Source: Cyanophora paradoxa CCMP329
Taxonomy: Eukaryota; Plantae; Glaucophyta
Assembly (NCBI GenBank): GCA_004431415.1
Contig: QPMI01000549.1
Span: 133,762-197,761 of the forward strand
DNA length: 64,000 nt
Reading direction: 5' to 3'
Shown: in pieces, positions 40,756-63,680 of the stretch
How positions within the stretch are numbered: position 1 is the stretch's first letter
Layout of the letters: each line of letters starts with the position of its first letter
Notes under the pieces: generated by a model
Seen by the model: only the letters and a program-made list of their open reading frames with translations
What the model was told of the DNA's origin: nothing
The model's database searches: none
Translations under genes and position numbers: made by a program

Positions 40756-40893
40756 AGCTCTCGCGGCCAACTTAAGTGATCAGCTTCAGCTGTAGCTGTG
40801 CAAGCCTTAAAGAAAACGCGATGATAGTTATCAATCAGAGATTGTGCGCGCTGAATTTCGAAAAAGTTTTCTGATTGTATCATTAATCGAAAC

Positions 40894-43800
40894 ATGAGCT
40901 CCCGAGCCGTAAGAGCTAGCCTTAGAACCGAAATCAACGAGCTTGCACAGAGGCTGTATGAGCGAGGCTACATTAATGCAACGTATAGGAACTCGCTACT
41001 GCGGCCTCTTTCAAACACCAGGACCCACACTGACACACTCCGATCCTCTCTAGCATCACTGCTCAGGCTGCAGGGGACAGAAAGGCCTCAGCGTCCGCTG
41101 TACGGGCGAGACGTTGCCGCTCATTTTGAGAGGGCGCAGGCTGCGCGAGCAGCAGCAACACAGGAGATTGATGAAGTTGCGGAAGCTATATCAGGGCTAT
41201 TCCGCGAGCAGGCATCGGCCAACGTTAACGTAGTTCGCACCTATACTCACCACGAGTATCCAGGGCTGCTTTTCACGAAGGACATTATAGAGATAGAGCC
41301 GACAGCTGATCCAGAGAGAGTGAAAGAATTGACGATAGCGTTTCTGAATGAGCTGCGAATCCCAGAGAGGATTGGAGCTGCTGTTTTAATTCGCTTTCAT
41401 TTTGAGAATTTCCACATGTACCGCACGCAGCTTGCGACCATAGAGGAGGGCACGATGCAGTCACTTCTAGCAAATCTCGCGGAGAAGATGGAGAGTTGGA
41501 TGCTAGCGCAGCAGCCCTACGAGGACACTGATGTCTGGCCAGTCGTGCAGATCGAGGTGCTTATCGCAGAAAACGCAGCAGGGGCTCTGGGAAATGTACC
41601 TAAGCTGCCCTTTGGAGGGAAGGCTCTAACGATGAACAAGATCTACTGTCCGATCTCTCCAGAGGACAACTGCGTGCTTGAATGCTTTGAGCATGAGAAG
41701 CTCAATCCCGGTCGCCTGAACCTTGAGAGAGTATATAAGAAGCTTCAGCATGTTGATTACAGTTCAATTCGCACACAGCTGGGGCTTCCACGGGCCTAAT
41801 TGTAGTCGATGAACCTACCATACGCAAGCTGAGCCAGCACTATAGAATCGATGCAAGCATTTTCGAGTGGGTCTCGGACCGCAGCGCGTCGAAGTTCAAG
41901 CTCCTATTTTCAACTGAATTTGGCTTTGAACGCCGAGCCCACCTTTGCGTGGTCGATGCGCACTGCTTTCTAATTAAAGATAAGAGAACGTGCGAGATGC
42001 AGAAGTGCAGAGCCTGCGGAAAGATGCAGTATGATTTGGCGACTCACAAGGAAACCTGCCGCTTCTGCTATACCTGCCGCTGCGCCTACAATCCGAAGGA
42101 GGACCATGCAAGCAAATGCGATGAAGCAGTGAGGAACAAGAGCGTTATTGAACGCAAAATCAAGCCATGCGAGCCCGAGGAAGAGTTTACAGCCCTAAAC
42201 TCAGTCATAGCGGCAGACTTTGAAACGTTTGCACCCAACCGCACGACCCACGTTCCGTACGCAGTCGATATGGACATAATTAGCAAAGGAGAGATCACGG
42301 AAACGAAATCGTTCTGCGGCCCCGAAACTCTGGAACAGTTTATGCTCTGGCTTGACGACTGGAAAGAAAAGTCGACTCTAGTATTCTTCAATGGCAGCGG
42401 CTTCGACTTGATATTTATCTATAAGTGGCTTGTCCAGAACCGCCCAGACTGCCAGGTCAAGGTGATGCGCTCATCCGGAAAGATCAAGAGCATGGAGTGG
42501 AAGACGCTGGCTGGGGAGAGTTTAAAAGCTTTGACCCCTGTTTGCACATACAGGGCTCACTGCGGCAGGCTGGGAAGGACTACGGGTGCACCACCTTGAA
42601 AGGGGATTTTGACCACCGAAAGATAAGAGCGTGGGATGACGTTGAGATTCACAAGGAAGCCTGGAGCGAATATTTGAGAGCTGACGTTCGGTCGATGACT
42701 GAGCTGTATATTAAGTACGCTCGGACATGTTTTGATCTATTTGGGATCAATGTGAATTCGAAGCGCACCTTGACAGCATCGGCGATGGCTTTTCAGATCC
42801 ACAGGCAGCTGATGAAAACGGAAGTGCTGCTACCGAAATACAAGGAGGACCAGATTTTTCGCAAAGCGATTTACGGAGGGCGATGCCTACCATTCAAGCG
42901 GAAGTTTGTCTCGAAGGGTCCAGATGATTACTTGGTAGATCTGGATGTGGTCTCTCTCTATCCGACGGCTATGTACTTTAATTACTTTCCCACTGGTAAA
43001 TTCAAATGCATCACCGATCAAGCGGAGCTAGAGCGATTCCGCAAGTTTATGCTGAGCAGGAAAATGGAACAGCTGTTTGTTGCAAAGATTAGCGCTAAAA
43101 TTCCTCAGGATCTTGTGCTCTCTCCCCTTCCCCGCCACGAAGCCAATCTGGGATGGTCTAACTTGAAGCCTATTGAGAAAGAAATGTACACCTCAGTCGA
43201 TATCTACCGGGCAATAGCACTGGGAGTTGAGATCACAGAGCTGCACGAGGTGTACTTGTTTGAGGGCAAGGAACGAATGTTCAAAGATTACATTGAGAAG
43301 CTGTACTGCATGAAAGCACGCTCACGAAAGGGGACCGCCCAGTATGCTACGGCGAAGATCCTCTTGAATGGGCTCTATGGAAAATTTGCTCAGCGTCCAG
43401 TAATTGAGACAACCGAGCTGGTCTCAAACTACAGACGATTCAAGGAGATACAGCGATCATCGACGATTACAGACATTGACATAGAGAATGATACGAGAAT
43501 GTACGTCACATTTGAGATCCCTGAGTATAGGCGGGATGCCTGCGTTTCGAAGCCTTGCTTTGTTGGTGCATTTATCCTCTCCTACAGCCGCGAAATCATG
43601 GATCGATTTTTGGTGAGGATGAACTCATATAAGGACGTAGAGGCAATGCCATACTACACAGATACAGATTCTATGATCGTGCACAGGAGGTTTGCTGAGC
43701 TTCTGAAGGACTGCATGAAGCAGCCATATTCAGTTGAGGGAATGTCAGAGGAGGAAGGGAATAGAATGATCTGCGAGAGCGAGCTGGGGAAACTAGATTA

Positions 43801-44266
43801 TGACATCCAAGGGAGAATTACTGAGGCTTACTTCATTGGCCCAAAGGTTTATTGCTGCTACTTTGTGAGGTCGAATGGGGAACCAGATCTGCATGTGCGG
43901 GCAAAGGGAATTCCGAAGAGCTGGATAGAGGAGAACTGGCTCCCGAGTGATCCAGTGGCAAAGAAGGAATCCCTTGATAACCGAATTGCTTTGGAGGCCT
44001 TCACAAGGATGCTAGAGGAACGTTATCAGCCGCAGTGCACACTAGATTCTAAACTAGCGCGTGTTTTCAAGCCCAATGGAAAGCAACGCGATGCTGGGAT
44101 CGACTTCAGCTCTATAATTCAGATTCCATTCAGCCGAATACTCAACAAAACGGAGTATACGAAACGAAAGATTATTCCTGACGAATATTACAGCACGGTT
44201 CCCCATGAATACGTTCGAGCAACAGGCGGCAGCCAAGAAGGCAACCTTGACTTTGTCGATCTCTGA
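40894..44266 (+). CDS. polB: Protein-primed family B DNA polymerase with N-terminal terminal-protein/vOTU-like region; two apparent frameshifts (~41795, ~42520)
   Basis: ExoI AADFET, ExoII FFNGSGFD, ExoIII YLRADV; motif A DLDVVSLYPTAM, motif B KILLNGLYGKFAQRP, motif C YTDTDS, RAKGI. N-terminal EDNCVLECF...VVDAHCFLI followed by CxxC fingers. Confidence 0.95.
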
Positions 44267-45422
44267 TGCTTACTATGATCCTGAGACAGGGCTCCAGTCA
44301 GCTGCACGGATAGCTAAGAAGCTGAAGATGCCGCTGGCAAGGGTGCAGGCAGTGCTCGCGAAGCTGTCCACAGCTCAGCGCTTTGCAAAACCGGTGAAAG
44401 AGAAGCCGTACACCAGTATCACGTATAATCACCCAGAGAAGTATTATGAAGTGGATTTGATCGATGTCAGTCCCTATGCTAGAAGCAACCGCGGAGTGCA
44501 CTTCATCATGAACGCTGTGGATGTTGTAACCCGGAAAGCGTACAGCATCCCAATGAAAAATAAAAGCGAGGGGACCCTGCTTTCGACACTGCGGCAGCTC
44601 ATAGCAAGCTTTCCGGTGAAGCCCGATATCATTCAGACGGATCAGGAATTCAAGGCTACAGCTGCAACTATGCTAGCAGCCGAGGGGATAAAGCACAATG
44701 CTGTCGAGGCGCATCGTCCGCAGGCAAATGGAAAGGTAGAGCGCTTTAATGGTACTCTGAAGCGGATCATTGCAAGATACATGGAGGCGTACGACACCGA
44801 CCGATATATCGATAAGCTGCCATCCTTTCTGCGCAACTATAACAGCTCCGAGCATAGAGCTATTAAAACTACGCCTGATGAGGCAGCAAAGAACCCAGCA
44901 CCTGTTATTGCAAGAAACGATTATCAGAGAGAGGCGTACGAGCAGCAGCACTATCTGAAAGAGGCCGAGTTCAAGGTAGGAGACTCTGTGCGCGTAAAGC
45001 TGGCGAGGAACACGTTTGATAAATCAACGAAGCCGACGTACTCAAAAGAAGTCTATCAGATTGAAGCTATAGGAGGATTTGGCCCTCTGCTCAAGTTCAA
45101 GCTTGCTGGATACGACAAGGAGGTGAGCTACCAGCAGCTGCTGAAAGTGCCAGCAGAGACAGAGCAGCGGCGGGCTGGAAGTGCTGCACAGAATGCCCTT
45201 CGCCGTCGAAAGCAGGAGCTGAATTTGATGCAAGAGAATCTGGACAAGTCAGACATCGAAAAAAATAAGAGACTTCTCCGGGTTCAAAAGCAGCTGCTTA
45301 CTGCTGGAACCAAGGCGTTAAATCCAGGAGGTTCGACAGCTCGGTGGTACACGTCTTTTGAAAATGCGAAGGCCTCTTATTCTGCGCCCAGCAACACGAG
45401 GACACTTAGACCGAGACGCTGA
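44205..45422 (+). CDS. int: Retroviral-type (rve) DDE integrase
   Basis: YYDP...G, EVDLID, VDVVTRKAY, IQTDQEF, NGKVERFNGTLK, YNSSEHRAIKTTP, C-terminal FKVGDSVRV. Catalytic D, D, E intact. Confidence 0.95.
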   Translation: MNTFEQQAAAKKATLTLSISDAYYDPETGLQSAARIAKKLKMPLARVQAVLAKLSTAQRFAKPVKEKPYTSITYNHPEKYYEVDLIDVSPYARSNRGVHFIMNAVDVVTRKAYSIPMKNKSEGTLLSTLRQLIASFPVKPDIIQTDQEFKATAATMLAAEGIKHNAVEAHRPQANGKVERFNGTLKRIIARYMEAYDTDRYIDKLPSFLRNYNSSEHRAIKTTPDEAAKNPAPVIARNDYQREAYEQQHYLKEAEFKVGDSVRVKLARNTFDKSTKPTYSKEVYQIEAIGGFGPLLKFKLAGYDKEVSYQQLLKVPAETEQRRAGSAAQNALRRRKQELNLMQENLDKSDIEKNKRLLRVQKQLLTAGTKALNPGGSTARWYTSFENAKASYSAPSNTRTLRPRR

Positions 45423-45684
45423 TTCCAGCGGAAGCTAGGGCACTCTCAAGTACAGAGATTCGATTTATCAACCGAGTGCGATAGCGCTTGTTTGCCTCGT
45501 TGTGAGCATCTTTGTGCGAAGCCTGATATCTGCTGCTCTGCTCAATGTGTCTCTGGCGATATGCAGGGTCCTCGCTGTATTTTCTGCGGTGGTACTCTGC
45601 TTTCTTCTCCCTTCTTGCTTGAATAATCTCTGGCGTAAGAGCAATCGGTTTGCGCCCTGGTTTGCGACGCTGCGCTGACTCCAT
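45406..45684 (-). CDS. Small basic helical protein, putative DNA-binding
   Basis: 92 aa, ATG start, RRKPGRKP followed by an Arg/Lys/Tyr-rich helix; AT-rich upstream region. Confidence 0.6.
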   Translation of the reverse strand: MESAQRRKPGRKPIALTPEIIQARREKKAEYHRRKYSEDPAYRQRHIEQSSRYQASHKDAHNEANKRYRTRLINRISVLESALASAGISVSV

Positions 45685-45771
45685 TTCCCTCTTTCATTTA
45701 AGGATCTAAATTATTTAAGCGGTATAAATCGCGCTAGAATCACGAGATTTATTTCTATCTTTTAAAGCATC

Positions 45772-46107
45772 ATGGAATCGCCGCTGCGCCTGACAATACT
45801 GAGAATTGGGAAATACAAAGGGCATACACACCTTGAAGTTGCTTTCAGAGATCCATCATATGCTCACTGGTTGTGTCGATGGGCCAGGCTAAGTGATTAT
45901 GATCGCGCTCAGTTTGTCAAGGCATCTAAGCTAATCCGAGAGACAAAACCAGACATTATGTGGGGATTGTACAAAAAAGAAAGAGCTGCTAGGATTGCTC
46001 AGGCTGCAGCCCAAAATTCTACGCAGCCACAAAATGTGGAGTTATCACCAGCAGATGACCTTGATCTGGACTTATCGATATCAGAGGCGGATGGGCCGGG
46101 CTTTTGA
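45772..46107 (+). CDS. Small protein with GKYKG (DUF3820/QSregVF_b-like) motif
   Basis: LRIGKYKGHTHLEVAFRDPSYAHWL matches the FGK[YH]KG...dp.Y..W pattern. Confidence 0.65.
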   Translation: MESPLRLTILRIGKYKGHTHLEVAFRDPSYAHWLCRWARLSDYDRAQFVKASKLIRETKPDIMWGLYKKERAARIAQAAAQNSTQPQNVELSPADDLDLDLSISEADGPGF

Positions 46108-46157
46108 ACTCTGAACTAGGCTTAAAGAGATCGCAATCTCAGATTGTAAAGAAAGAC

Positions 46158-46727
46158 ATGGAAGTCACAATTCCAGAGGTTCCTGAAGGCGCTGTAGCAA
46201 TCCCGCTTGGTGGAATTCGCAATCGCCGCAAAGTCATCATTGCTTATGCTCTTGTTTCACAGGAAGATGCTGATCGTGTGCTTGGATTTCGCTGGAGTTT
46301 AGATAATGGATACGCCAAAACCATCATCAATGGTAAGAAGGTAAGAATGCATAATTTCATCAGTGGCGAGTTGGAGAATGGTTTAACTGTTGATCATATA
46401 AATCTGAACAAACTTGATAATAGACGCGAAAATTTTCGACTGGCAACAAAGCGGCAGCAGACTCTAAACCAGAATCGGCGGGTCACAAACACCAGCGGTT
46501 TCATTGGTGTTTCATTCAATCAGCAGCTTGGTAAATGGAAAGCATACTATCAGATAAACGGACATCGGAAACACATCGGCTACTATACTACTGCTGAAGC
46601 TGCTGCTAAAGCCAGAGACACCTATGCCCTTCATCATACGTCCGCCGAGGATAAGCCATTTCTGCATCTGAATTTTACAACCGAATCCTCTGGCCACCCA
46701 TCGCATTCTTCATCTGCGACCCAGTAA
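46158..46727 (+). CDS. HNH-AP2 homing endonuclease 1
   Basis: ALVSQED...GYA...RMHNFI...TVDHINLNKLDNRRENFR (HNH) plus NTSGFIGVSF...KWKAY...IGYYTTAEAAAKARD...LNF (AP2). Confidence 0.92.
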   Translation: MEVTIPEVPEGAVAIPLGGIRNRRKVIIAYALVSQEDADRVLGFRWSLDNGYAKTIINGKKVRMHNFISGELENGLTVDHINLNKLDNRRENFRLATKRQQTLNQNRRVTNTSGFIGVSFNQQLGKWKAYYQINGHRKHIGYYTTAEAAAKARDTYALHHTSAEDKPFLHLNFTTESSGHPSHSSSATQ

Positions 46728-47307
46728 CATTTGGCTCGAAAACATTTGGAGTTGCAGGTTTTACTTCGGCAGAGTCAAGCGATTGCTCGGCTTTAGCTTT
46801 TTCGTTTTTCAGATACCGCAAATCCGGCACGTCCATGGGTCTGTGCTTAAACATCTCGCTTCGCAACATCTCGCGGATCTTAGCTCTTTCTTGCTTATCT
46901 TTTACATATGATTCGATATTAGCCGACCTCGCTTCTAGATCACGCAATTTGGCAGCCAACTCGTCAATCTGACTTTTTGACACTGTTGCTGTCTTGATTT
47001 TCGGCCCTGAATAACGTGGTTCAGACGCCATGGCTTGGATAATTCTAGCAGCATCATCATCAATATCGTACTGCATTTCAGATACAGTTTTGACCTGGCT
47101 TTGTCGGTCGTCAACCGCACTGGCATTAGCTGCTGCCGAGGCGATCGTTTTAGCAACGGGTGCATTAAGACGTGGGTCACTAGCTAGTTCACCGCTAGGA
47201 GCAGCAACAGCTGCGCCCTCTGTCGCACCACTTTCGATGAGAGGGGCGTTTGGCTCTGGGAGCACCCTTCGTTCACGAAAACCCTTTCTTGGAATCCCAC
47301 GTGGCAT
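46675..47307 (-). CDS. Hypothetical viral protein (basic N-terminus, coiled coil)
   Basis: 210-aa ATG ORF directly downstream of the ATPase; MPRGIPRKGFRERR; heptad-like IDELAAKLRDLEARSANIESYV. Confidence 0.65.
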   Translation of the reverse strand: MPRGIPRKGFRERRVLPEPNAPLIESGATEGAAVAAPSGELASDPRLNAPVAKTIASAAANASAVDDRQSQVKTVSEMQYDIDDDAARIIQAMASEPRYSGPKIKTATVSKSQIDELAAKLRDLEARSANIESYVKDKQERAKIREMLRSEMFKHRPMDVPDLRYLKNEKAKAEQSLDSAEVKPATPNVFEPNVTGSQMKNAMGGQRIRL

Positions 47308-47316
47308 CTTCTGTTC

Positions 47317-48077
47317 TTATGCTAAGATTTTAAAACGCTTCTTTTTAGAGATAACAGGCGAAGACTCTTCTTTTTTAGACTCTTCTTCTTGTCTTAGCCC
47401 GAAGGGCAAGGAGCCCTCCTTGGGCGACGCCCATTTAGAGAAACGAAAACTCTTATCTTCAACAGCTTTATCAACATACCAGGCAGTATCATACTTCGTT
47501 CCATCAAGGACTAGGCACTGATAATCATGCGCCCAAGTCTCGAACAAAGCAATAAACTCATCTTTCGGGAGATGACTAAATTCTCTATAAATTGCCTCGA
47601 GCTCGGTATGATTAGAGTAACTGAAGAAAAAACAATAGTCGGAGTTCGATCTTATAGATTGACTCAATGCTGTAAGCTTTGGGTCATAAGAATCGTACTG
47701 ATATTAAAATGACGACCTTGTGTAAAAAGTCGATTAACGGTCTTGCTATTTCGCAGATCAACAGTTTCAGAGGCAGCAACGAGATCATCCAATACAAGCA
47801 ATATCTGCGGCGCTTTCTTTTTGTTTTCAATCAAATTTCGCTGTGAATCAATGATTTCTGCAACGATAGATGGCTGAAAATCGTCGTAAAGCTCTTTAGT
47901 TATTGCAGAGTATTCACCATTGAATTTGGTGGCCGTAAACACTACGACGCGATTGATCTTTGGATAAAGCAGTCGAAGCAAATGCTTTGTGCAATAGAAA
48001 GACTTCCCACTATTAGACTTTGAAATGAATAGGGCTTTGAATGGAACCCTCATATCGCTAGGCTGGAACTGATCCAT
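47317..48077 (-). CDS. A32/FtsK-like genome packaging ATPase, apparent frameshift at ~47670
   Basis: Walker A SKSNSGKS, Walker B LLVLDD, GRHFNISTILMTQ, then SIRSNSDYCFFF and YQCLVLD in the next frame. Confidence 0.92.
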
Positions 48078-48139
48078 CAAAAAATAGTCGGCAGACAAGC
48101 TGCCTCGGCTGCGCCCAACTACCGAGATTAGCAGATTCT

Positions 48140-49527
48140 CTAGAGGTTAACTTTGCGAAGACCCGCAGCATCAACAATTAGGACAGTGTGCAGGAGAGCG
48201 CGAATTTGGACGTAAATCTTGTTGTTAGCATCATACGCAGCAGGGTTCATGATATTCAGGAAGCAGCTGCTCGAGTTCGTCAGATCTACGAAACCAGTTT
48301 GAGCAGCATTTCGGATCGATTTATCCCCACTAATGCAAAATGGCAAACCAGTCAGAACATATCGATTAAGAGGCGCGTCGAGATTTGAGCACTTGAAGAC
48401 ATCAGCGATGAGTTCAGCACCTTGCAATAGAGGAACAGGCTCGTTTGAATAAAGCCGCTGGCCATTCAATTCGCAGGAAATAGTGATATCACGAGTATTC
48501 GCCTCGGTTTTGAGGACACTGTGTTTTCCGTCAGTTTGGTTCATGTTTGGCTGTTTGCGAATGCTAACGAACAGACCGTAGCAAAGTCCACTGATTTGAG
48601 ACAGATTAATCCGGGTGGGCGCTCCCGCACCAGCATATGTAATTGAATCAGCATCAACCCAGCCGACATCGGTAGCGGGAATGGCAATCCCCGAAGATTT
48701 GACTTTCTCAATCACCTGGGCAAAAGTGGCCTCATCAACATTGATGCAGTGAGCTATAATCTTCGGATTCGAAAGCTCGGGTTTTTCAGGAGTGACAGTG
48801 AGGACATTGGGAGTTATATTCTGGCCGATGTTTGCAGGGGATGCAGCAGCGGCTCCCACGCTCCCGAGTCCATCTTCTTTAGTCGCATCACCGCCTATGG
48901 CATATTCCGTTACAAACCTACCACCATAGCTGGTCTCAACAAAGCCCTGGGCACGATCACGGAACCAAACCTCGACAGACACCTCGCCAGAAAGAGCACC
49001 AATTGGGAGCACAGAACCCTCCCATGGACAGGGATTTTTACACTGAAAATACCTCCAGTGCGATTTGTCCCCTGAGGTGGTGTTCCATGTAGCCAGCCAC
49101 CTGACCGGTATTTCTTTTTGAGCTGAGCATCATCATTGAAAATCAGAGCGCTGTGAACAAGCCAGTCCTCAGGGACGATGTAGCTGTAGGAAGCATATTT
49201 GATTTCAATTCGCTTTACAAGAGCACCAACAGACCGCAGATAACCAGTGCGAACCAGGTCAGTGTCACCAGTAAAAGCGGTCAGCTCGGGCAGGGTAAAC
49301 TGGAGTTCAAGCCCCTGAAGGAAATTGTAACGGGGTAGGAAATAAGTAACCCTCTTTCCGAAGCAGTCTCCATAGTCATTGCTAGGGTTGACAACGACAC
49401 GCACAGGCTTTGTTTGGCTGGTTAGACCTAACATAAGCTCGTTATTCATAAAGAAATCCTTAGCTTCCTGCGGAGTTGTGAGCAGCTCCTTTAGACCAAG
49501 ACGTTGCAAGTTCTGGGTAACATCCAT
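48140..49527 (-). CDS. Double jelly-roll major capsid protein, apparent frameshift at ~49020
   Basis: ~460 aa when joined. FGKRVTYFLPRYNFLQGLELQFTLPEL, VKRIEIKY, VKIPV...LPIGALSGEVSVEVWFR, LNGQRLY, QTGFVDLT resemble the PLV/NCLDV MCP pattern; located between ATPase and mCP. Confidence 0.85.
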
Positions 49528-49657
49528 TGAAGTGTTTATAATTCAAACGGAAGAAAATAATTCAGCGCTTAGCCGCCGGCGAGCCAGCTTGGCGCAGCGG
49601 TCGCTGTGCGGAGCACAAGTGGCTCCTTGCCTTCGGCTTGTCTGCGACTCTGGCGAC

Positions 49658-50614
49658 TCAGTTTGACGAATTGATCCAAGGATATGTCTTTGACCTTTTC
49701 TGGAGCTGAAGCTTGGCGAGCTCGTAGACAACATCGCCATTGGGTTCATCTGGGCCATAACGAATTTCGAGTATAAATGAGACAGGACCTCCATTTAAAT
49801 CAGCAATTCGCTGCATAAAATCGTAAATCTCAATAGTCACAGAGTAGAGGTCCAGCTTTGAATAAATATACTTGTACAAAGGATGTGCTTCAGTTGAATC
49901 ATAGTATGCTATCTCGCCTGGACGAAGGACGCTTGGAATGCTCAGCTTCGAGAAGAAGCCAGGTATTGACGTGTTCGGCATACTGACAAGGTCACCAATT
50001 TCAGGAATTCGTAGGAGCACATGATCATCAGGAGTGACATCAGGCTCATAAGCGCCTGCTATATATTCAGTATTTATAGATAATGTCTTTGACCGAATCG
50101 GTAGAATTGATCTCAGCCCTAGAAGCTTTGCAGTTCGCTGAGCCCTTGCAACGGCCTGGTAGTTTCTGACTTCCCGCCCACCCTGGTTCGTTGGCAACAT
50201 CAGAGCAATAAAGAACTCGAAGTTAGCTGTGAACCCTATTAATTTGATCGCTGAATTATACGTGCACGTGATACCTGTTCCCGTCAACCTTTCGTTTATC
50301 TCTGTCACAAGCGAGGTGACGTCGTAATTTCCAGGTGGAATTGCAATGTTATTCCACGCTCCAAATCCGGCCTGAGGTGGGTCGGGTCCTTCATTAGTGG
50401 GATCATATTTGCACCAATATATATAGGTGTTAAAGACTAAATCCTCTGCCGGATCGAGTACATCGATTGTGCTCATAGTGTTGGGGATCTCAGCTGATAC
50501 CAAGCGCACGGCTTTCACATCCTGATAAACTTTAGGCAGTCTTACTTTAAATTTCGAGGTGGATGTCAGCTCCTCCGCTTGGTGACTTGCAATGCAGACG
50601 TAGTCCGTAGGCAT
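49658..50614 (-). CDS. Minor capsid (penton) protein A
   Basis: FKVRLPKVYQDVKAVRLVSAEIPNT, IAIPPGNY, VLLRIPEI, LYSVTIEIYD...DLNGGPVSFILEI, the PLV/NCLDV single jelly-roll penton pattern. Confidence 0.8.
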   Translation of the reverse strand: MPTDYVCIASHQAEELTSTSKFKVRLPKVYQDVKAVRLVSAEIPNTMSTIDVLDPAEDLVFNTYIYWCKYDPTNEGPDPPQAGFGAWNNIAIPPGNYDVTSLVTEINERLTGTGITCTYNSAIKLIGFTANFEFFIALMLPTNQGGREVRNYQAVARAQRTAKLLGLRSILPIRSKTLSINTEYIAGAYEPDVTPDDHVLLRIPEIGDLVSMPNTSIPGFFSKLSIPSVLRPGEIAYYDSTEAHPLYKYIYSKLDLYSVTIEIYDFMQRIADLNGGPVSFILEIRYGPDEPNGDVVYELAKLQLQKRSKTYPWINSSN

Positions 50615-50641
50615 CTTTTTTATATCAGTTAGAGAATAAAA

Positions 50642-51562
50642 ATGGTCAAAGACAAGCATCGACGCTGCGCCAGGCTTACCTTTGACAGCAGAGACAGAAG
50701 GCCAATCGATTCAGAGGCAAACTTCGTGCTCGAAATCAATGAACCGATAATCAATCCAGTTGCTGTTCGACTAACCCAGTGTGAGTTCGCAAACAGCCTT
50801 TACACCAGCATTAAAGCTGAGTATCTTTCCATCACCTTTCCCTACCTTGGAACGCAAAACGTGGAGGTGTTTGAGCCTGGCATAATTACGACTGCAAATC
50901 TGGGCGAAACAGATATTTACAACTTTGGCCTATCATTTAATATTGAGCTAGAAGGTATTTCAATTGCGTATTTTAAACTATTTCGAGACCCAGAGACGCT
51001 GAAAATGTCTGCGTATTGCAACCGTTCCTGCACACTGACCTGCCAGTTCAAAGCCTTATCGAATCTGCTCGGGCTGAACCGAAATGAGCCCCTCCAGCTG
51101 TCTCCTATTGTGCTTGAAGGGCCGCAAAGACCAGCAACTGCAGCTGAGCGGTATCTAGAGGTTGCTGGCATTCCAGTGACACCTGCTCACCCTGAGTACG
51201 GCGTGGATTTCACCGGAAGAATGCAGAGTATAGCACTTGGTTACGCCGTCGAATTTCCAAAGATAATCGACATGAACAGCGACCAGTACCTCTTCCTTGT
51301 CTGCGAAGAGCTACGGCCGTTTGCTTCGAAGCTTCGCCGTGGGGCTAAATCAATGTGTAATTACGGGCTCGCTCGAATCCAGATGAGCCAGGATGTTGGC
51401 AAGTTCGTTTATATAAATCAGGAAAATGACGAGTGGATCCACATCGAAGAGCGCCTGGTGCTGACCTCTTTGCGACTGCGCATTGTCGACAGAGATGGCG
51501 ATGATGTATCACTGAATGGATTGCCATGGTCTGGGGAGCTCCAGTTCATCACTTATAATTAG
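50642..51562 (+). CDS. Minor capsid (penton) protein B
   Basis: TFDSRDR...NFVLEINEPIINPVAVRLTQCEFANS, YLFLVCEEL, LARIQM, LTSLRLRIVDRDGDDVSLNGLPWSGELQF. Confidence 0.82.
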   Translation: MVKDKHRRCARLTFDSRDRRPIDSEANFVLEINEPIINPVAVRLTQCEFANSLYTSIKAEYLSITFPYLGTQNVEVFEPGIITTANLGETDIYNFGLSFNIELEGISIAYFKLFRDPETLKMSAYCNRSCTLTCQFKALSNLLGLNRNEPLQLSPIVLEGPQRPATAAERYLEVAGIPVTPAHPEYGVDFTGRMQSIALGYAVEFPKIIDMNSDQYLFLVCEELRPFASKLRRGAKSMCNYGLARIQMSQDVGKFVYINQENDEWIHIEERLVLTSLRLRIVDRDGDDVSLNGLPWSGELQFITYN

Positions 51563-52065
51563 AAGTTAAGTCGGAGAAATGGGTGATCCACTTCTGGAGT
51601 ATTGGCAAGCGCATAGGCACGAGCAGCAGCCTCAGCTGAAGTAAAGTCACCAATTGTCTTCTGTTGGCCGTTGAAACGATATGAGGCTCTCCATTTATCA
51701 GAAGTTTTACGATATGTTACACCAATGAACCCGCTGGTGTTATTGTGTTGCTTGTTACGATTCATAGTCTGCTGTCGCTTTGTTGCTACTCGTAAGTTTT
51801 CACGTCTATTATCAAGTTTGTTTAAATTGATATGATCCACTGTCAACCCTCTCTCAATATTCGGGTAAAGAAAATTATGCAATCCAATTGATCTTTTCTT
51901 TCCATCCAATTTCACATTGCTTTCTGCATAGCCATTGCCAGCATTCAAATGCCATTTCTTTTGAAACACTTTTTCAGCATCCTCTTGCGACACAAGGGCA
52001 TAGGCTCTGATATTCCCTCGGTGATCGCGAAGTGGAACTGGTATTGCTCCATGAGGAATGTCCAT
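51559..52065 (-). CDS. HNH-AP2 homing endonuclease 2
   Basis: TVDHINLNKLDNRRENLR plus NNTSGFIGV...KWRASY...IGDFTSAEAAARAY...LNF; clear paralog of 46158-46727. Confidence 0.92.
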   Translation of the reverse strand: MDIPHGAIPVPLRDHRGNIRAYALVSQEDAEKVFQKKWHLNAGNGYAESNVKLDGKKRSIGLHNFLYPNIERGLTVDHINLNKLDNRRENLRVATKRQQTMNRNKQHNNTSGFIGVTYRKTSDKWRASYRFNGQQKTIGDFTSAEAAARAYALANTPEVDHPFLRLNF

Positions 52066-52125
52066 TTCTACAGCTGGACTGCTCACCTTTTCAATTAGAA
52101 ACCTTTGATCCCTTTAAGTCATAGC

Positions 52126-52251
52126 GAGTGGATCCACATCGAAGAGCGCCTGGTGCTGACCTCTCTGCGACTGCGCATTGTCGACAGAGATGGTGATGAC
52201 GTCTCTCTGAATGGCCTGCCTTGGTCTGGTGAACTGCAATTTCTAGTTTAG
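52126..52251 (+). pseudogene. Displaced second copy of the 3' end of penton B
   Basis: Encodes EWIHIEERLVLTSLRLRIVDRDGDDVSLNGLPWSGELQFLV*, matching 51431-51547 for 39 codons; no start codon. Confidence 0.9.
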
Positions 52252-53727
52252 GTAACGTCCCCGGAAATCAAGCCGGAACGCGTTCACATTTATAAATTCG
52301 TTTGTTATAATTTGCACATAGTTATACACCTGTGGGGTGATCAAGTGCGAGTCACTATGCATTATATCGAAGCCTGTCATAGATGGGTTTGCAGCAAGCA
52401 CATTGGATAGGACCGTATTTTCAAATAGTGACCCGTCTCGTAAATATCCTAAATTGGTCAGAATGCTGAAATTAAATAGGACTCCGGCGGCAAAGGCTGG
52501 CCCATACATAATTATTTGATGTAGCTCAAAAGGCTTAGGAAACTCGACTTTGATCCAGGGATTAGGTAAAGTGCCCCCTTGGAACCCTGTTGAGTTAGGT
52601 CGAACGTGAGAAGGTGGGTGCAATTCCTCAAAGTCGTTGCTTGTGATGTTTGCATCTGGAATTATAAACCAGTTGACATCAAATGGCGGCTCAACTGTTA
52701 AGGTAGACGATATGATAAGTCTCTCATCGTTCAGTAGGTCGTAGTTCGCCAGTAGAAAGCTGCAGAGTGCATTTATTTTAGCATTTATTTCGGTTTGTTT
52801 CAGCCATAAATCAGTCGTGGAAATCAAATAAGAAATATTCGAAGGGGAGGCATCATCAAGCTTGCTCATAACTGCAGCTGGCAGCGGAACACTTAAACGC
52901 CAGTATCTAGTTAAATTTCTATCTGCATCAACTGGAAGCAGCTCCTGCATTTGAAAGTGCGATTCCAGCTCGCTCCCAGCCATTAGCATAGAAATAATTG
53001 GGCTGCCTGAGAGGGATAAGATCCAGCCCAGGGCGCCCCAGCCTGACGTCTCCGCATTCGAAAAGCCTGCAGTCAGTTGCTCACTGGCTTGGACCTCACC
53101 ACAGCTGATGCTCACAAGAACAATTGGATCCTCTGCATCATAAATTTTGCTGGCGTGGCTTAGCGCTGCAACTGAGGGATTATTTAAACAGGCGATGGCC
53201 CCATCAACAAGGTTTTTGTCTCCTAGAACCTTCGGTGGAAAGAATGTTGGCGCTGCAGAAGATGCTCTAACTGCATCACGAATCAGCGTGCTCGAGTATG
53301 GCCCATCTTTGGTGAAAACTACGGGCTGCATCCGAACTGTATCAAACGCTGTAATTAATATGTCTTTGGTCGATTCTGCAATTGTGTAGTCTAGGGCAAC
53401 GTCTGTGAGCACCGACTCCAGAGGGTTTCCATCATAGCGGCTTCCTGAGAGCAAGCTTGTGAGTGATCTCGGATTTGCGAATATTACAGGTAGGTTCGTT
53501 TGATATAAACTGAAGATATCACCTGCAGAATATCGATAAGCGAGAACAGAGCCTGGAGTTGATGGGATAGCCAAACCGGCCGCTATTATTGCCCCTGTTG
53601 AGGTGCCTGCAAAGAAATCAAACAGCTGTGGAATTGCTTTCCCAGTAATCGCCTCGATCCGCTGTAGAATTCGGGCAATGACTATGCCACGAGCACCTCC
53701 ACCTGATAGTGAGAGAATGACCTTCAT
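52243..53727 (-). CDS. Patatin-like phospholipase with C-terminal beta-sandwich (discoidin/F5-8-like) extension
   Basis: LSLSGGGARG, FDFFAGTSTG, VRASSAAPTFFPP, LVDGA; C-terminal PNPWIKVEFPKPFELHQIIMYG. Confidence 0.9.
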   Translation of the reverse strand: MKVILSLSGGGARGIVIARILQRIEAITGKAIPQLFDFFAGTSTGAIIAAGLAIPSTPGSVLAYRYSAGDIFSLYQTNLPVIFANPRSLTSLLSGSRYDGNPLESVLTDVALDYTIAESTKDILITAFDTVRMQPVVFTKDGPYSSTLIRDAVRASSAAPTFFPPKVLGDKNLVDGAIACLNNPSVAALSHASKIYDAEDPIVLVSISCGEVQASEQLTAGFSNAETSGWGALGWILSLSGSPIISMLMAGSELESHFQMQELLPVDADRNLTRYWRLSVPLPAAVMSKLDDASPSNISYLISTTDLWLKQTEINAKINALCSFLLANYDLLNDERLIISSTLTVEPPFDVNWFIIPDANITSNDFEELHPPSHVRPNSTGFQGGTLPNPWIKVEFPKPFELHQIIMYGPAFAAGVLFNFSILTNLGYLRDGSLFENTVLSNVLAANPSMTGFDIMHSDSHLITPQVYNYVQIITNEFINVNAFRLDFRGRYLN

Positions 53728-53750
53728 TTTTAAAAGGGGCTTATATAAAA

Positions 53751-56700
53751 ATGTCCTACATCTTGAAGAAGCCAGTACCACTTCGTAAAGCTCCAGATTT
53801 TGTGGATGATCGGCATATAAATATTCGCGTATTTGGGAGTACTCTAATTGACTACAATGCTGACAAAGATATACACCAGACTGAGTTTAATCGCCCAGCT
53901 GCATTAATTCTGCGCAACGCACATGTTGGCGCCCCAGATATTGCACAGAGATTTTGTCTGGGTCCAGCTGAGAATTATGTTGCTGAAATAATCGGATCCA
54001 GGGCGTTGCCGCGGCACCTGCGAATTGCCTCCTCAGGCACAGTTTCCAAATATGATTCTGGTAGATTAATCTTTAGGCTCCAAAATGATAGAGGGGTCCA
54101 CACATCAGCTCTACGTCTAATTGATGAATCCAATGCTGTCACAAACAAGACTGCGGCTCACATTACAGGGCGAATTCTCCTTGGCGAAGAGTCGCAGACA
54201 AGCCGAAGGCAAGGAGCCACTTGTGCTCCGCACAGCGACGCTGCGCCTGCTGGAATATCAGTGCTAGCATCGCAAATCCAGCCGTTTCCCTGGGATCTAC
54301 TTTTTACAGCTGCACGAGAAGCGAATATTTTATACGGTTTTGATGTAAATCAAATCGATACTGAGCCAGCCACCAGGTTAGATATTCCTGGATGCACCTT
54401 GGGCTCTATCCTGATTGAAGCTGACAGGCACCTGCTCCCTGCGTTGCATGACAGCTACGATCTAGGGCTCCGCACCAGGCAGTGGCGAAATATTCATGGA
54501 ACAAATATTTATCAGGATGGTAAGAAGGTTAGCACTGAAGAGGAGGTGATCAACATTTTCAACTACTACTTCGGACCTATTGTCCCTATACCACCTATAC
54601 CACCTCTTCCAGGGCTACCGAAGCCGCCAACCCGGACGGCCCAGGTCGAGAGCGAGTTGCTGATGAAACAGTTCCTTTCGGTCAACATATTGTCAGTTGG
54701 GAGCAAGTTCGCAATAAACCTATCTTCGAACCGAAAAAGCAAATAGATGAACAGTATTTACCTCCTGAAATCGATATATTAGAGCTTGAAGAATACCAAT
54801 TTGTCCCAGATGAGGAAGAGTATTTACCTGACGGTTTCGACCCGCAAGAGTATGAATATGATCAATATGACCCAATGAGGAAGAGTATTTACCCGATGGT
54901 TTAGATCCACAAGAGTATGAGTATGAACAGAACTATGAACCCCACGAGGATTATTTAGCAGATGGCCTCGAGCCTCCTGCTGTTGAGTATGCGCAGCCTT
55001 ATGAACACCATGAGGAATTATTGCCAGATGGTTTACAACCTGAGATTTTTGAGATGTACCTTGACTGGGAGCAGATCAACAATAAACCCGCGAGATATCC
55101 ACCAGAGGATCACAACCATGACTGGGATGAGATCTTAGGTAAACCTGAGAAATATCCACCTGAAGATCACAGGCATGATTGGGGCGATATTGATGGAATA
55201 CCACCTGAGTTTCCGCCGGAAGACCATTTACATATTTGGAGCGAAATACGAGAGCAGCCCACTTTTGCATCAGCAGGTAATGTTTTACTAGGAGATATTA
55301 ACAATGGGGTAAGTCTCTACCAAAATATAGACACACCAGAAAGATTACAATTAAATGATTACTATGTGAATCGCAAAGGAATCGATGCAGGCACCACAAT
55401 GGAAGGCGAATTATACATTAGACCCCTACAAGAAATGGAATATTGGGACTTGGTGGTGGTATTGAAATTAAAGACACCAAACCAGGTATCTATCTTACCA
55501 GCTACTATGCAGATGACATCCCAATGACAGGAGGATTGATCTCTCTACCATCTGATCCAGCAAACTATGATGATAAAAACGCAGCAATCCAAATTAATGT
55601 TACTGATGTGAGTGATTTAGATTCATCAAGACCGAAATTAATATTCAGCAGAGAGAGATTGTTACCAGATGCACTTTTGGGGAACCGAGATGACTATAAA
55701 CAATGCGAGGTTGCATGGATTAAAACGAATTATAATGGTGGAGTTGGTGAGGGAGTTTTAGAAATTAATCAGAGGGCAGCAGCAAAGAATATTCACAATG
55801 AGACCATATCAAGAGTGGTAACAGAGGATTATCTGAGAGACAATGGAGCAACAATCATCGCAGGAATTGCTGTGGAGGGTGCTTACCTTCCTCTCACTGG
55901 TGGAACTGTCACAGGTGATGTTCATGCTCCGAATTTCCTTGTTGATACTCCAAATGCTCAGACATTTCCTGTTGTTCACCCAGGTGCTGAATATATATTA
56001 GATGCAAACACTCCAATTAGTAGAGTCGAATTACCAACGAATTTCACCTTTAATCTTGTGGATGTGTTCCCAAACAGCCATAATCTCATGTATTTCTCTT
56101 CTGAGAATTACCTTTCAGGTGCATTTTCGCCCATTGAACTCTCCATACCAAAGCAAAAGGTGAGCTACAAAGAACTCACAGATGTCCCGGCAGGATTTAG
56201 TGGTAAATGGACTGATATTACGGAGAAGCCAACTTGGAGTAGTGTAGCATTCACAGGTGATTACTATGATTTATCAAGAATTCCCGATTTCACCACTTAT
56301 ATACCTCGTTGGATTGATCAAAGTGTAATTATATCAGAATCTACACTCCCTTTCAATGGGACATGGGATAGACTATTTACTAAACCGAATTTGCATGCTG
56401 TGGCTACAAGTGGTGACTACAATGATTTAACTAACACCCCTACTGCACCGACCTTGCATGCTGTGGCTACAAGTGGAAACTATAATGATCTCGTTAATAC
56501 ACCAAACTTGCATGCTGTGGCTACAAGCGGGAACTATGACGATTTAATTAACACACCCACTTCGCCACCTACTCACAATCACAGCATAGAGTTGCTTACG
56601 AATTTCGGTAATTATGTGAATGCAAATGCATATGTGCAACAGGGGACAGCGAATGTAGTCATTCCTGCCGGAGTCTATTACAAAGGGGATTTTACCACAG

Positions 56701-57080
56701 TATCGGGAACCGTTACATTTTCTACCCCATATAATAGTGATCCAATAGTTAATGCTACTCTCGAAAATGATATTATCTTAACAAGTGTCAATTTTACAAA
56801 CAGCATATATATCTCCGCTGAATTTGTGAGTGGGAACCGTGTTGGTTTCAAAAATAAATTCACTTGGATTGCTATATTTACTTGTTACTCGGACATCAAT
56901 TATACGAATGTGCCCCAAAACGAAAGAACCCTTAAACTCCATTGGATTGCTGTCGGACCTCTCCAAACAATAATATTCTCACGTAATTATAAAGAGCAAT
57001 TTAAAGATGACAACTGTATTCACGCCTGTGTTTTCTTTGAGTGCAAGTGCTGTCCACAATGTCCAACACACTGTTTATGA
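53751..57080 (+). CDS. Large fibre/spike protein split by apparent frameshifts (~54650-54750, ~54880, ~55440)
   Basis: LLPALHDSYDLG..TRQWRNIH, Pro-rich hinge, acidic EEYLPDG repeats, HxHDWxxIxGKP repeats, YLPLTGGTVTGD, three LHAVATSGxYxDLxNTP repeats, C-terminal VTFSTPYNSDPIV...LHWIAVG. These are phage tail-fibre-like motifs; the region could be more than one gene. Confidence 0.7.
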
Positions 57081-57960
57081 TTTATCTCCAAGCCACCCTT
57101 CGACTGAGACAGCGAAAACCGATTCTTTTAATGACCAAAGCATACTCAGAGTCAAAGAACTCCGAGCTGACAAGGCTGATGGAGTCGTTAAAGCTACTCA
57201 AATGATCGTATCTAATCGACCCGCAATCTCTTCGGGGCTGGTCACCAAAGAAAATCTATATGAAGGTCAACAGGATTCCAAAACGGCTTTTAATCCGGCT
57301 GATAGGAATTCGGCGGCTTTTCAAGTTTACAGTGGTGGGGCATGGATTGGGACTGGACTGAGTGTGAATGGGACAGTGACAGCGACTTCTTATGGGGCTG
57401 TGAGTGCAACCACTGGGACGTTTTCAGTCTCTTGACAGGAAATGGTGGAGTGAAAACAACTTCTGTCGATTCAGGAGCAGATTCTGATATAGTTTTGAAG
57501 CGAAATAATACAACGATAGCCACCATCACAACTTCTGGTCTCAGTTTGGCGGATACTAAATATTTGAAGGCTAATTTTACCCATCATGTCGTGTTTATCA
57601 TGCAACATCTACTGCTTATACAGCTGGTCAGGTGATCAAATGGGCAAACATTTACTACAATGTTGGGGATGCTATAATTCAGCTACTGGTATTTTCACAT
57701 GCCCTGTGGCTGGGATGTATGTTGTATCTTTTGGTGCATATGCTGATTCATCTACCTGTGATGTTGTGTGTCGACACAACGGTTCATCTACATTTTTAAG
57801 TCTTTTGAGTATAAAAACAACTTCAACACAAGGAGGAAGCCCTTGTGCAACATTTAAAGCCAATTCGGGCGATTACTTTGATGTTGCTGTGTCCCAAGGG
57901 ACAGCATCAATTATCGCAAGTCAACAGAGTTTCTGTGTTGCATTAATTTATGCAGTATAA
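57007..57960 (+). CDS. Fibre family member 1, with C1q-like C-terminal domain (apparent frameshifts)
   Basis: Shared N-terminus RVKELRADK..GVVK and GGAWIGTGLSVNG; C-terminus YNSATGIFTCPVAGMYVVSF...ANSGDYFDV is C1q-like. Confidence 0.75.
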
Positions 57961-57981
57961 TAAAATGTTTTGCTATAATAA

Positions 57982-58240
57982 ATGTCGAACATCTACCAAG
58001 TGGTTCTAACTGATACTGAAAAACTGGGAATGGAATACTGTGCCTACTCTGTTCAGGATTGGATCGATAATGCTGCTCATAATCGGGCGAGAATTGCGAT
58101 TGATGAGATTGTGGACAAAGAAGTTAAATCGTGTATTGCCGCTGGAATTCCGATTCCACTCACAAAGGAAGCGATTGTAGAGCAAGCGTTTGCAAGGGGA
58201 CTGTTCGAAAGGCAAGCGAAATTCCTGTGAGTGCTCCTAT
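57982..58240 (+). CDS. Small protein resembling phage fibre-associated proteins
   Basis: YQVVLTDTEKLGMEY...QDWIDNAAHNRARIAIDEIV...IPLTKEAIVEQAF; recalled similarity to aquatic phage proteins encoded next to C1q fibres (unverified). 3' end approximate. Confidence 0.6.
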
Positions 58241-58375
58241 GTAAAGAACTCGAATTCGAAGAATGAGAGATGGGTTAATTGTTATTTTTCATAGATCATG
58301 CATAAGAAAGGCATGTATCTTGCATGTCCTTCTTGAAAGTCGTTTATTTTTCTTTCCTTCTTAGTAAAAGAAGCA

Positions 58376-59219
58376 ATGGGTGAATATAATCGAGTTCAAC
58401 TTCCAATATATTCCCTTGGATCCCCTGCTATGCACTTTCGCCAGCATGAAGTAAATGATGAGGTTCGTGGATTAGAATCCACAGAGAGACCCAATTCCAA
58501 TGGTAACTCCTTTGATAAGAATTCGATTATTCGAGTTAAAGAACTTCGAGCCGACAAAAACTCAGGTGTGGTTAAAACAACTCGACTTCTTGTGACTAAT
58601 GCCAACTTCTTTCAACCTACCAATGGAGGCCCTGATGCTTACAGTGTAAATCTGAAAGCTCTTGATTTCGATAAAAACACTGCTGCTGCTACAATTCGTT
58701 CAGGCGGTGCTTTTATTGGTGGAGGTTGCCGTGTATCCGGTCAACTCTCTTCATCTGTTTCGTTTAATGATGTCCCTGATACTCTCGATCAAAATGTAGA
58801 GAATCCACAGCGTATTAGATTATATACACCTGTTGCACAGCAACCATTTGTTCAATTTTACGTAGGTTATACAGTTACACTTGCAACCTCTGAACTAATT
58901 GAAGGAACCAAAAGAGTAATGAGAGGTCTCGCCATTCCAAACGCCATGCTCTCTTTATGTAGAGCCAACAACAACCAGCCAGGTCACAGGTACTATTTCA
59001 GTGTGCAGGGATATGATCATTTCGGCACAGGCTTCTGTGTTTATAACAATAATTCACTTACGATTTGTTTGTTACAGACATTGGCAAATATACTATAACA
59101 ATTATCGGTTTGAGAACAGATATAGCAGCTGTTTCAGTTCTCAGAGGTGTTACTCCTGATACTCTTTCAGTATCAGGGTTTTACCAGGAACCAGATGTGA
59201 TCGATGACCCCACTCCTAA
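58376..59219 (+). CDS. Fibre family member 2 (copy 1; apparent frameshift at ~59053)
   Basis: RVKELRADKNSGVVKTT, GGAFIGGGCRVSG; C-terminus ...FSVQGYDHFG...IIGLRTD. Confidence 0.7.
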
Positions 59220-59243
59220 AATATATATATATGTTTAATATAA

Positions 59244-60087
59244 ATGGCTGAACCACCTCCAATTGAGCGTATTGTTACAGCACAGCTTTCATTAGCTGCA
59301 CCAGCTAACCACGTTCTGCAGCATGCTACTTTCGATGATGTAGAAGGTCTGCAATCAACAGAGGTTCAACCTACGATGAACACCTTCGGTTCCACCATAA
59401 ACTGAGATTGCAGGAACTCAGGTGCGATAAAAATAATGGTATAGTTAAGACCACGAAATTACTTGTAACTAATGCGAATTTTAGTGCCCATTATGGTGAT
59501 CCAGACAGTTATGGCGCCCCTCTTTCGACTTATTCTTTCGAGTCTAGGTCAGGAGCTATTAACTGCAAGACGGGGGAGCATATATTGGTGATGGTTTGCG
59601 GGTTGGTGGAGCTGTTGGTGCTCCTCTCTTTGTTAATGATCAACCAAACCCTATTGATCCTAACACGAGAATTCGAACCTATTTGCCAAGTATGAATGCA
59701 CCATATATTATAAAGATCTTCCCAATCGTTGTTAATGAGCAGACATCAGTAGTTGATTCTCTTGTGGAAATTGGTGACCACTACAAGGTGGTTGTTGATA
59801 TCCCTCCAGACGTCTACGCTGTCTGTCAAGTAGAGGGTGGAACCCCAAACATTGCTGTGGTGATTACTCCATATGATAATTTCGGGATCGCTTATCATGG
59901 TGTAAATTTCGGCCTTGAAGACTACCAGTTCTTGGTGAGAGCTACAAAATTCGGTATTTATAAATGCATTCTCTATGCAGAAAGAACCGATGCTATCGCA
60001 AGCAGAATACCTATGCGGAGTACTACGGCACTAATAGGTACTTCCCCATTTTCGGACAGGATACTGCCCCGTAGAGAATATCCCTAA
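59244..60087 (+). CDS. Fibre family member 3 (copy 1; apparent frameshifts)
   Basis: RLQELRCDKNNGIVKTT, GGAYIGDGLRVGG; C-terminus FVNDQPNPIDP...VVITPYDNFG...ILYAERTD. Confidence 0.7.
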
Positions 60088-60442
60088 TTATTTGCCGAGA
60101 CCTCTGATAATGGCCTCATGTCTTGCAGGAGTGTTTGAGTTGCTGCGTCACTTCCATTCGCATGCTCGCCTACAGTCGCATTGTTGTACAGCGGATTTAG
60201 ATCTTTCTTTTGGAGGTGATCATGACAGCAACAGCGCCAACCGTGAAGCTGAACTCGAAGCTCTTCAGCACGTAGAAGATCCAGCACCGCCGGTGTGCAC
60301 TACCAGAGGGCCGCTCCGTCAATAATGTACCATCTATATCAGGATGCTTGAAGGCTCGCTGAGGTGGCCTCGACATCATTTTGTTTGCTTTTGAAAAAAA
60401 GAAACAGGGACAGCCAGCCGTTTCAAACACATAGATAGCTTT

Positions 60443-60788
60443 TTATTTACGCCCTGTTTTCAATTGGGAAATTAAGACGTAGAAAAGGCCAGTCTGCCTC
60501 TGCAGTGTGCTCAAGTAGATACTGATCTCGAGCTCTGGCTGCTTCCTCCGCTGTGGAGAAGCATCCAACATCGATTGTTTTTCTATTTTGCCAATGGTAG
60601 CAACCCATCTGCTTTTCGATCTGTTGTAACTCACTCCAAGGAATCCGCTGGTGTTATTCGAATTCTTGTCTCGATGCATTCGGTGCTGCTGTTTTGTTAC
60701 GAACTTTAGATTATCTCTGCGACAATCCAGTTTATCCCCGCTGACACAGAGGATGCTATGATCTGCAGGAGCTTTCCCCTTCACCAGA
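60443..60788 (-). pseudogene. 5'-truncated copy of HNH-AP2 gene 3, created by the duplication
   Basis: Matches ~63105-63452 but lacks the start. Confidence 0.8.
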
Positions 60789-61043
60789 AGTTAAATCGTG
60801 TATTGCCGCTGGAATTCCGATTCCACTCACAAAGGAAGCGATTGTAGAGCAAGCGTTTGCAAGGGGGACTGTTCGAAAGGCAAGCGAAATTCCTGTGAGT
60901 GCTCCTATGTAAAGAACTCGAATTCGAAGAATGAGAGATGGGTTAATTGTTATTTGTCATAGATCATGCATAAGAAAGGCATGTATCTTGCATGTCCTTC
61001 TTGAAAGTCGTTTATTTTTCTTTCCTTCTTAGTAAAAGAAGCA

Positions 61044-61888: not shown

Positions 61889-61910
61889 AATATATATATG
61901 TTTAATATAA

Positions 61911-63613: not shown

Positions 63614-63680
63614 GTATCTTCCTTTCGATAATATAAGAGATTGTGTTCTCTTTATGTCATACACACCCCTCATATTAAAA

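Follow-up and report, generated by a model that had tools for sequence, protein, structure and literature searches.

The 3' end of a viral capsid gene occurs twice in a 64,000-nt stretch of the genome of Cyanophora paradoxa CCMP329 (GenBank assembly GCA_004431415.1, contig QPMI01000549.1, forward-strand positions 133,762 to 197,761; hereafter, the window), and an antisense gene for an HNH-AP2 protein lies between the two copies. This arrangement raises the question of whether the intervening DNA is a homing cassette which entered the capsid gene and supplied it with a new end. An original prediction, made from the sequence alone, had proposed such a cassette and had added that the new gene end was synonymously recoded in order to resist cleavage.

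The integrated virus and its duplicated penton gene end

The principal features of the locus, in coordinates of the window, are as follows.

39077..63998, no strand: integrated virus of Polinton type, bounded by terminal inverted repeats of 299 nt (39077-39375 and 63700-63998)
49658..50659, minus strand: penton A, paralogous to penton B (hhalign probability 97%, E 3.3e-11)
50642..51562, plus strand: hybrid gene for penton (minor capsid protein) B, 306 aa, in which a native 5' part is joined to a 3' end brought by the cassette
51559..52065, minus strand: HNH-AP2 endonuclease gene 2 (HNH2), 168 aa, with HNH domain at 51766-51864 and AP2 domain at 51607-51735
52243..53727, minus strand: patatin-like lipase gene (Pfam E 1.5e-25), the downstream neighbour of penton B in the empty allele

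The 25-kb element has a GC content of 41-49%, that of the surrounding host DNA being mostly 56-76%, and its right terminal repeat ends 2 nt before the end of the window. In a Pfam scan of 16 element proteins a protein-primed polB (DNA_pol_B_2, E 5e-43), an rve integrase (rve_3 above the cut-off, rve below), an A32 ATPase and the patatin were named, together with two HNH-AP2 proteins and, more weakly, a third HNH and an ExoX-like domain; no Pfam match was obtained for 8 of the 16 proteins. Protein-primed polB plus rve integrase, which define Polinton/Maverick elements in the available text of PMC5499653, are accompanied in this element by the terminal inverted repeats, a packaging ATPase and a penton. 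The gene at 48140-49527 is labelled a putative double jelly-roll major capsid gene from its position and size; its product gave no Pfam match and no relative in viral contigs.

Some further observations concern the state of the element and its surroundings. In the assembly, the genes for the polymerase, the ATPase and the putative major capsid protein are broken up or truncated (41997-44266, 47664-48098, 48140-49527); since other virus copies in the sequencing runs show indel differences at some of these places, the breaks are either assembly errors or decay of this copy. A tandem duplication of 2.67 kb with 99% identity inside the virus (58119-63452) is either recent or an assembly artefact, and an AT-rich complex array of 46-58 nt units lies just inside the left terminal repeat (39720-40760). 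A repeat of 52-61 nt is found behind the penton A stop (49591-49651, minus strand) and in frame inside a 331-aa ORF (54188-54247, plus strand), with shorter relatives at 39387 and 48091. Contigs skip this repeat (joints 54190-54248, 54190-54255 and 49563-49655), and similar sequence comes after the penton B stop in the lineage termed B below (loose end at 51555). It has the look of a short mobile element akin to the terminal-repeat region; its two long copies folded no better than shuffles (z -0.4 to -0.5). The host gene at 9517-10203 has a calponin-homology domain and resembles an alpha-actinin gene interrupted by short introns.

The predicted identity of the capsid gene as a penton in a Polinton-type element was borne out by profile, structure-model and Pfam results. 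A HMMER search over 1.84 billion proteins recovered 7 relatives of penton B, and the profile built from them matched PBCV-1 P1 (E 2e-6), P1v1 (E 3e-6) and also the neighbouring penton A (97%). A structure model of penton B (pLDDT 77) matched the mavirus penton (E 3.7e-7) and the PBCV-1 and Sputnik pentons, with TM-scores of only 0.34-0.47, and in the ESM Atlas the protein scored 0.98 to viral clusters including Sputnik V18/19, with a recognition value below the threshold of the tool. The single-sequence fold (pLDDT 31) gave no usable model; no relatives of penton B were found in viral contigs, metagenome contigs or a word-indexed protein search, single-sequence blastp of penton A against penton B was uninformative (E 0.04), and the penton alignment contained no stretch conserved enough for a locus search. 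The two paralogous penton genes are arranged head to head (49658-51562).

The two copies of the penton B end (51431-51547 and 52126-52242) comprise 117 nt each and encode the same 39 residues with 13 nucleotide differences, all of them synonymous. Codons 1-13 are identical, one difference falls in codon 14 and 12 fall in codons 23-39. The repeat was recovered by self-blastn of 39001-64000 (E 1.5e-39). For random single-base changes, 26% of which are synonymous, an outcome of 13 out of 13 has a p of about 2e-8, and at least 12 of 13 differences in the last 17 codons a p of about 3e-5 (200,000 draws). The first copy, which is in frame with the gene and was called the expressed copy in the original prediction, ends I-T-Y-N-stop and overlaps the HNH stop by 4 nt, and the second ends L-V-stop and overlaps the patatin stop by 9 nt. 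The duplication, its differences and the stop overlaps had been described before, and a recount reproduced them.

Empty alleles and the origin of the replacement end

Of 24 sequencing runs listed, all carrying one species label, 20 contain the stretch, and five (X1, X6, X12, X15 and X18) were compared with the window. The comparisons use assembled contigs with the best matches listed; the runs have similar ratios and may be of one strain, and one of them may be the source sample. The parts of the hybrid gene and its insert are the following.

50642..51431, plus strand: portion of penton B in front of the insertion point, native and of lineage A type
51432..51469, plus strand: proximal replacement end, lineage A type (0/40 differences to the orphan over 51430-51469)
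51470..51562, plus strand: distal replacement end, lineage B type, with a 6-nt extension before the stop
51432..52123, no strand: insert of 692 nt missing from empty alleles, made up of the replacement gene end, the HNH-AP2 gene and its upstream region
52124..52251, plus strand: orphan native 3' end of penton B (1/127 differences to the empty allele of X6), overlapping the patatin stop

It had been predicted that alleles lacking the insert should exist and carry the second gene end directly next to patatin. Such an empty junction was present in all five runs, as a joint from 51431 to 52124 in X6, X15 and X18 and as an equivalent junction in X1 and X12, where it appears as 3 extra letters at 51429 (X1 has in addition a joint 51429-52124). 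A 311-nt contig of X6 follows the window over 51248-51431 with 0/184 differences and continues with 52124-52250 with one difference, and a contig of X1 (depth 1774) carries 52166-52275 into the end of the patatin gene. The orphan is the native end of penton B, matching the empty alleles, and its earlier designation as the ancestral end was correct. Its start has to be moved; the duplicate itself was placed properly at 52126, and the empty-allele joint puts the first base of the orphan two bases earlier, at 52124. The near identity of both flanks to the empty allele indicates that the insertion is recent. Empty lineage-A contigs were 13-19 times deeper than contigs identical to the HNH2 of the window, depth not being copy number.

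Since the two repeat copies are offset by 695 nt and the skip is 692 nt, the empty allele is one codon longer than the gene in the window, reading N-D-G-E-W instead of N-D-E-W. This 3-nt loss, which was absent from the original prediction, coincides with the first base of the orphan, and the proximal replacement end accordingly starts 3 nt downstream of the break, without one Gly codon of the empty alleles. Every other junction variant among the matches listed keeps the Gly codon; those of the lineage termed B below have it too but differ close by, and may or may not be targets. The insertion point lies 43 codons from the gene end in an indel-tolerant loop, gapped among 8 aligned pentons, while 5 of the alignment's 15 invariant columns, and in the model the final strands, lie in the replaced part.

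The distal part of the replacement end has close relatives elsewhere in the runs. Over 51480-51555 a contig of X18, at 20 times the cassette depth and running into unrelated DNA, differs from the window at 3/76 positions, compared with 16/76 between orphan and replacement (Fisher p 0.002). It belongs to an abundant class, referred to as lineage B, which occurs at 20-37 times the cassette depth, ends F-I-T-stop and has no HNH gene behind the penton. An abundant contig upstream shows 8/80 differences to the window over 51430-51509, among them 51466 and 51469; lineage B as used here consists of these two abundant contigs, joined by overlap and depth and unphased. Provided that both contigs form one lineage, the replacement end is by sequence a mosaic, with 13 codons of lineage-A type and the remainder of lineage-B type. 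The in-frame copy is foreign in its distal part, which comes from another lineage, and of native type in its proximal 13 codons. The excess of synonymous differences can be explained by selection on the capsid protein in two lineages, and their distal clustering by a crossover near codon 14, in both cases without recoding.

The HNH-AP2 nuclease and related cassettes

Two additional features belong to the nuclease genes.

46158..46727, plus strand: HNH-AP2 gene 1 (HNH1), with 55% aa identity to HNH2 (Pfam, alignment)
52107..52117, minus strand: 11-nt motif upstream of HNH2, with two matches beyond position 39000, at HNH2 and HNH1 only

The identification of the inserted gene as an HNH-AP2 gene was supported by its Pfam domains, HNH_3 with E 2.6e-10 and AP2 with E 1.9e-6 (28.5 bits, below the cut-off of 33.3), and by an intact catalytic motif. 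The residues D77, H78, N86 and N90 are invariant or nearly so among 26 aligned sequences, 24 of which were chosen from 255 hits. A profile of the HNH-AP2 family matched the I-HmuI entry 1u3e (E 1.2e-4) and plant AP2 structures (to E 5e-16); HNH2 as a single sequence gave no match to solved structures and no relatives in viral contigs. With an N-terminal HNH_3 domain carrying the predicted catalytic residues and a C-terminal AP2 domain, HNH2 is assigned to the HNH-AP2 family. The 11-nt motif ends 6 nt inside the insert boundary and, judged by its position and its second match, is likely a cassette-borne promoter element.

No duplicated gene end was found beside HNH1 by self-blastn. Further HNH-AP2 variants occur at other sites, and genes of this kind are missing from some virus copies: HNH1 is skipped by the joint 46076-46754 (in 3 of 4 runs), and a second such joint is 52068-53849. 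A third, degenerate HNH-like ORF (63317-63673) adjoins the right terminal repeat. A contig of 805 nt, found in each of the five runs, contains a more distantly related HNH-AP2 gene whose upstream side enters the 331-aa ORF at about codon 33 (joint 52068-53849); it could be a cassette supplying a new 5' end.

In X1, X6 and X15 the penton end is joined to HNH2 by contigs without any difference to the window (51526-51805, 0/280 differences), which reach 30 letters into the penton side of the branch point; a contig of X12 is likewise identical over 51552-51805 (0/254 differences). Contigs that link penton end and HNH gene extend only 28-30 letters on that side, slightly short of the bridging rule of the tool. 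A second cassette family, 7% diverged (14/197 differences) and at about 2.7 times the cassette depth, was found in 4 of 4 runs (X1, X6, X12 and X18). A contig of X12 with a depth similar to that of the second family has a lineage-B end, 6 nt shorter, followed directly by the HNH stop. The right junction of the second family was seen in one of the four runs: a contig of X1 fits 51989-52148 without gaps and with 12 differences, of which, by comparison with X6 and X18, 7 lie before 52118 and 5 in the last 30 letters, so that the contig passes from the HNH upstream region into DNA resembling the penton end. The contig of X6 does not fit over the 46 letters that follow 52118, and those of X12 and X18 stop 3 letters after this position. 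From these contigs, the second family may have more than one right junction. A contig of the second family in X12 fits 51528-51619 and then has 40 non-fitting letters just inside the AP2 domain, the HNH half being 93% identical; an exchange of the DNA-binding (AP2) domain is possible. Coverage holes, such as that in the AP2 region of the second family and 3 of 30 bins in X18, were not used as evidence.

Proposed homing, its alternatives and known systems

The insert probably is an HNH-AP2 homing cassette, of the design of the mobile ORFs of fungal mitochondria, and empty copies would be cut by its enzyme at the insertion point or close to it; a probability of about 0.58 is assigned to this reading. 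In a lineage-B virus, the HNH gene would at first have stood immediately after the penton stop. A break in the penton loop of a lineage-A virus would then have been repaired from this donor, the gene end, the HNH gene and its upstream motif being copied, with a left joint in frame at the cost of one codon and a right joint made without homology, which would have stranded the native end before patatin. Both halves of the site would now be broken and the carrier would be immune. With homology on both sides, i.e., the 5' part of penton B on the left and the orphan and patatin on the right, further spread could proceed by ordinary break repair, as long as several copies were active in one nucleus. 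Flanking homology together with the lack of an intact site would be the requirements of a homing cassette.

The position of the immunity is constrained by the orphan. Since it keeps the sequence of the empty allele at 126 of 127 positions, a site wholly within the duplicated part would still be present in a cassette genome. Only across the insertion point is the sequence broken in both copies, on the left without 3 nt and on the right without everything upstream. The 3-nt loss is, on this anatomical argument, a better candidate for immunity than the synonymous changes, if the loss is real. Some likeness of the junction to plant AP2 binding boxes was dropped as evidence, the 7-mer there occurring 3 times in the element. 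The free-standing enzymes of phage T4 cut hundreds of bases from their genes (available text of PMC2988022), so the target of HNH2 could also lie elsewhere.

In an alternative explanation, a lineage-A break of any cause was patched once from lineage B, and the HNH-AP2 gene was a passenger with its target, if it has one, at another place. In favour of such an accident, the cassette allele has not swept, since it is the rarest class (relative depth 1, compared with 13-19 in the empty alleles of lineage A and 20-37 in lineage B), many diverged copies coexist in one genome, the replacement end is itself a mosaic, and HNH1 has no duplicated gene end. Against it, the captured piece is almost exactly a gene end, a nuclease gene and the upstream motif, ending 6 nt past the latter, and the second family, 7% diverged, repeats the layout on the left and in X1 has a right side that resembles the orphan, in register. 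It is regarded as unlikely, while still the strongest of the alternatives. Far less probable is a chimera, in which two virus copies were misjoined or the 3-nt loss is a consensus error. Dozens of similar copies are present, and the 3-nt-shorter left junction of the window at 51431 and its exact right junction at 52124 were in no contig among the matches listed; in 3 of 4 runs (X1, X6, X12 and X15) all covering depth also departs from the window at 49030 and 53735, each time by a single-base indel, so an assembly error at the junction is possible. The contigs identical to the window over 51526-51805 (X1, X6 and X15) or 51552-51805 (X12) and the X1 contig of the second family, which crosses the right junction region, nevertheless speak against a chimera; an error is also opposed by the coincidence of the 3-nt loss with the first base of the orphan, and polishing by the deeper empty alleles would be expected to restore a codon rather than remove one.

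The lowest probability is given to the recoding of the original prediction, according to which the changes in the last 17 codons protect the gene from its own enzyme. Its appeal lies in the 13 differences, all synonymous and clustered distally, but the distal sequence proved to be for the most part a natural allele of a sister lineage, one far deeper than the cassette and without an HNH gene behind the penton, and the distal sequence presumed to be sensitive persists in the orphan, 560 nt away, so that the genome would still carry its target. This part of the prediction is not upheld, and the homing cassette with a gene end mostly of natural lineage-B sequence remains the preferred reading.

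The predicted likeness to the mobile ORFs of fungal mitochondria agrees with the layout described in the available text of PMC3630166, where mobile endonuclease ORFs form gene hybrids in Allomyces macrogynus atp6 and in atp6, atp9, cox2 and nad3 of Glomus sp.; cleavage has been shown for this class, as cited there, and C-terminal duplications of cob and atp6 in fungal mitochondria are reported in the part of PMC6279837 consulted. As in the Allomyces and Glomus ORFs, a duplicated 3' end has an endonuclease gene between its copies. The fungal ORFs so described and the present cassette share a foreign in-frame 3' end, an endonuclease gene and a displaced native end, and in both the native end matches empty relatives and the replacement comes from another lineage. 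The fungal enzymes are of the LAGLIDADG or GIY-YIG type, sometimes in phase with the host gene, and mitochondrial, whereas here an antisense HNH-AP2 gene lies in a viral capsid gene; unlike the fungal systems in these accounts, empty alleles and a candidate donor lineage are found in the same host species.

The original prediction knew of no description in this virus group. Intronless homing at capsid genes proved to have been proposed in print for this group: seg2 of PgVV-14T (Gezel-14T) and an HNH gene of the PLV Montjoie2259 are named as putative homing endonucleases in the accessible portion of bioRxiv 10.1101/2022.07.28.501842. Like HNH2, they are putative intronless homing endonucleases beside PLV capsid genes and absent from close relatives; they differ in lying between capsid genes, and that portion describes no duplicated or replaced gene end. 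The other part of the claim stood: in the full-text literature searched, which covers few subscription papers, no Polinton, Polinton-like virus or virophage was found described with a replaced gene end. In phages, the seg and mob genes of T4 are intronless homing genes, with an antisense segD between genes 23 and 24 (available text of PMC2988022), and the HNH-AP2 (IPA-HNH) genes of ICP1 are a recognised class of putative homing endonucleases (available text of PMC10448857). According to these texts, features in common are a free-standing nuclease by an essential gene, HNH with C-terminal AP2, and an antisense position at capsid genes. The T4 genes are described there as intergenic, cutting far from the insertion and without an orphan end, whereas the insertion here is within a gene and leaves an orphan; the T4-type layout, without gene-end duplication, does not describe this locus. 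The design is already known; new are the host element, the nuclease family, the orientation, and the empty alleles and candidate donor lineage of the same species.

A wider reading would have HNH-AP2 cassettes drive among dozens of endogenous virus copies in one nucleus, cutting a conserved codon of the penton loop, carrying capsid-gene ends between lineages and retargeting by AP2 exchange. This we consider doubtful; if true, target, donor lineage and two generations of the cassette would coexist in this host. According to the available text of bioRxiv 10.64898/2026.10.13.758929, few genes are more frequent in these viruses than nucleases, and their role is unclear. A nucleotide-exact candidate target, natural alleles presumed sensitive and immune, and an enzyme of 168 aa are in hand, and with them homing by an HNH-AP2 protein from a eukaryotic virus becomes testable, as does the binding site of an AP2 domain attached to a nuclease. 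The cassette would also show concretely how capsid genes of endogenous viruses can become mosaic.
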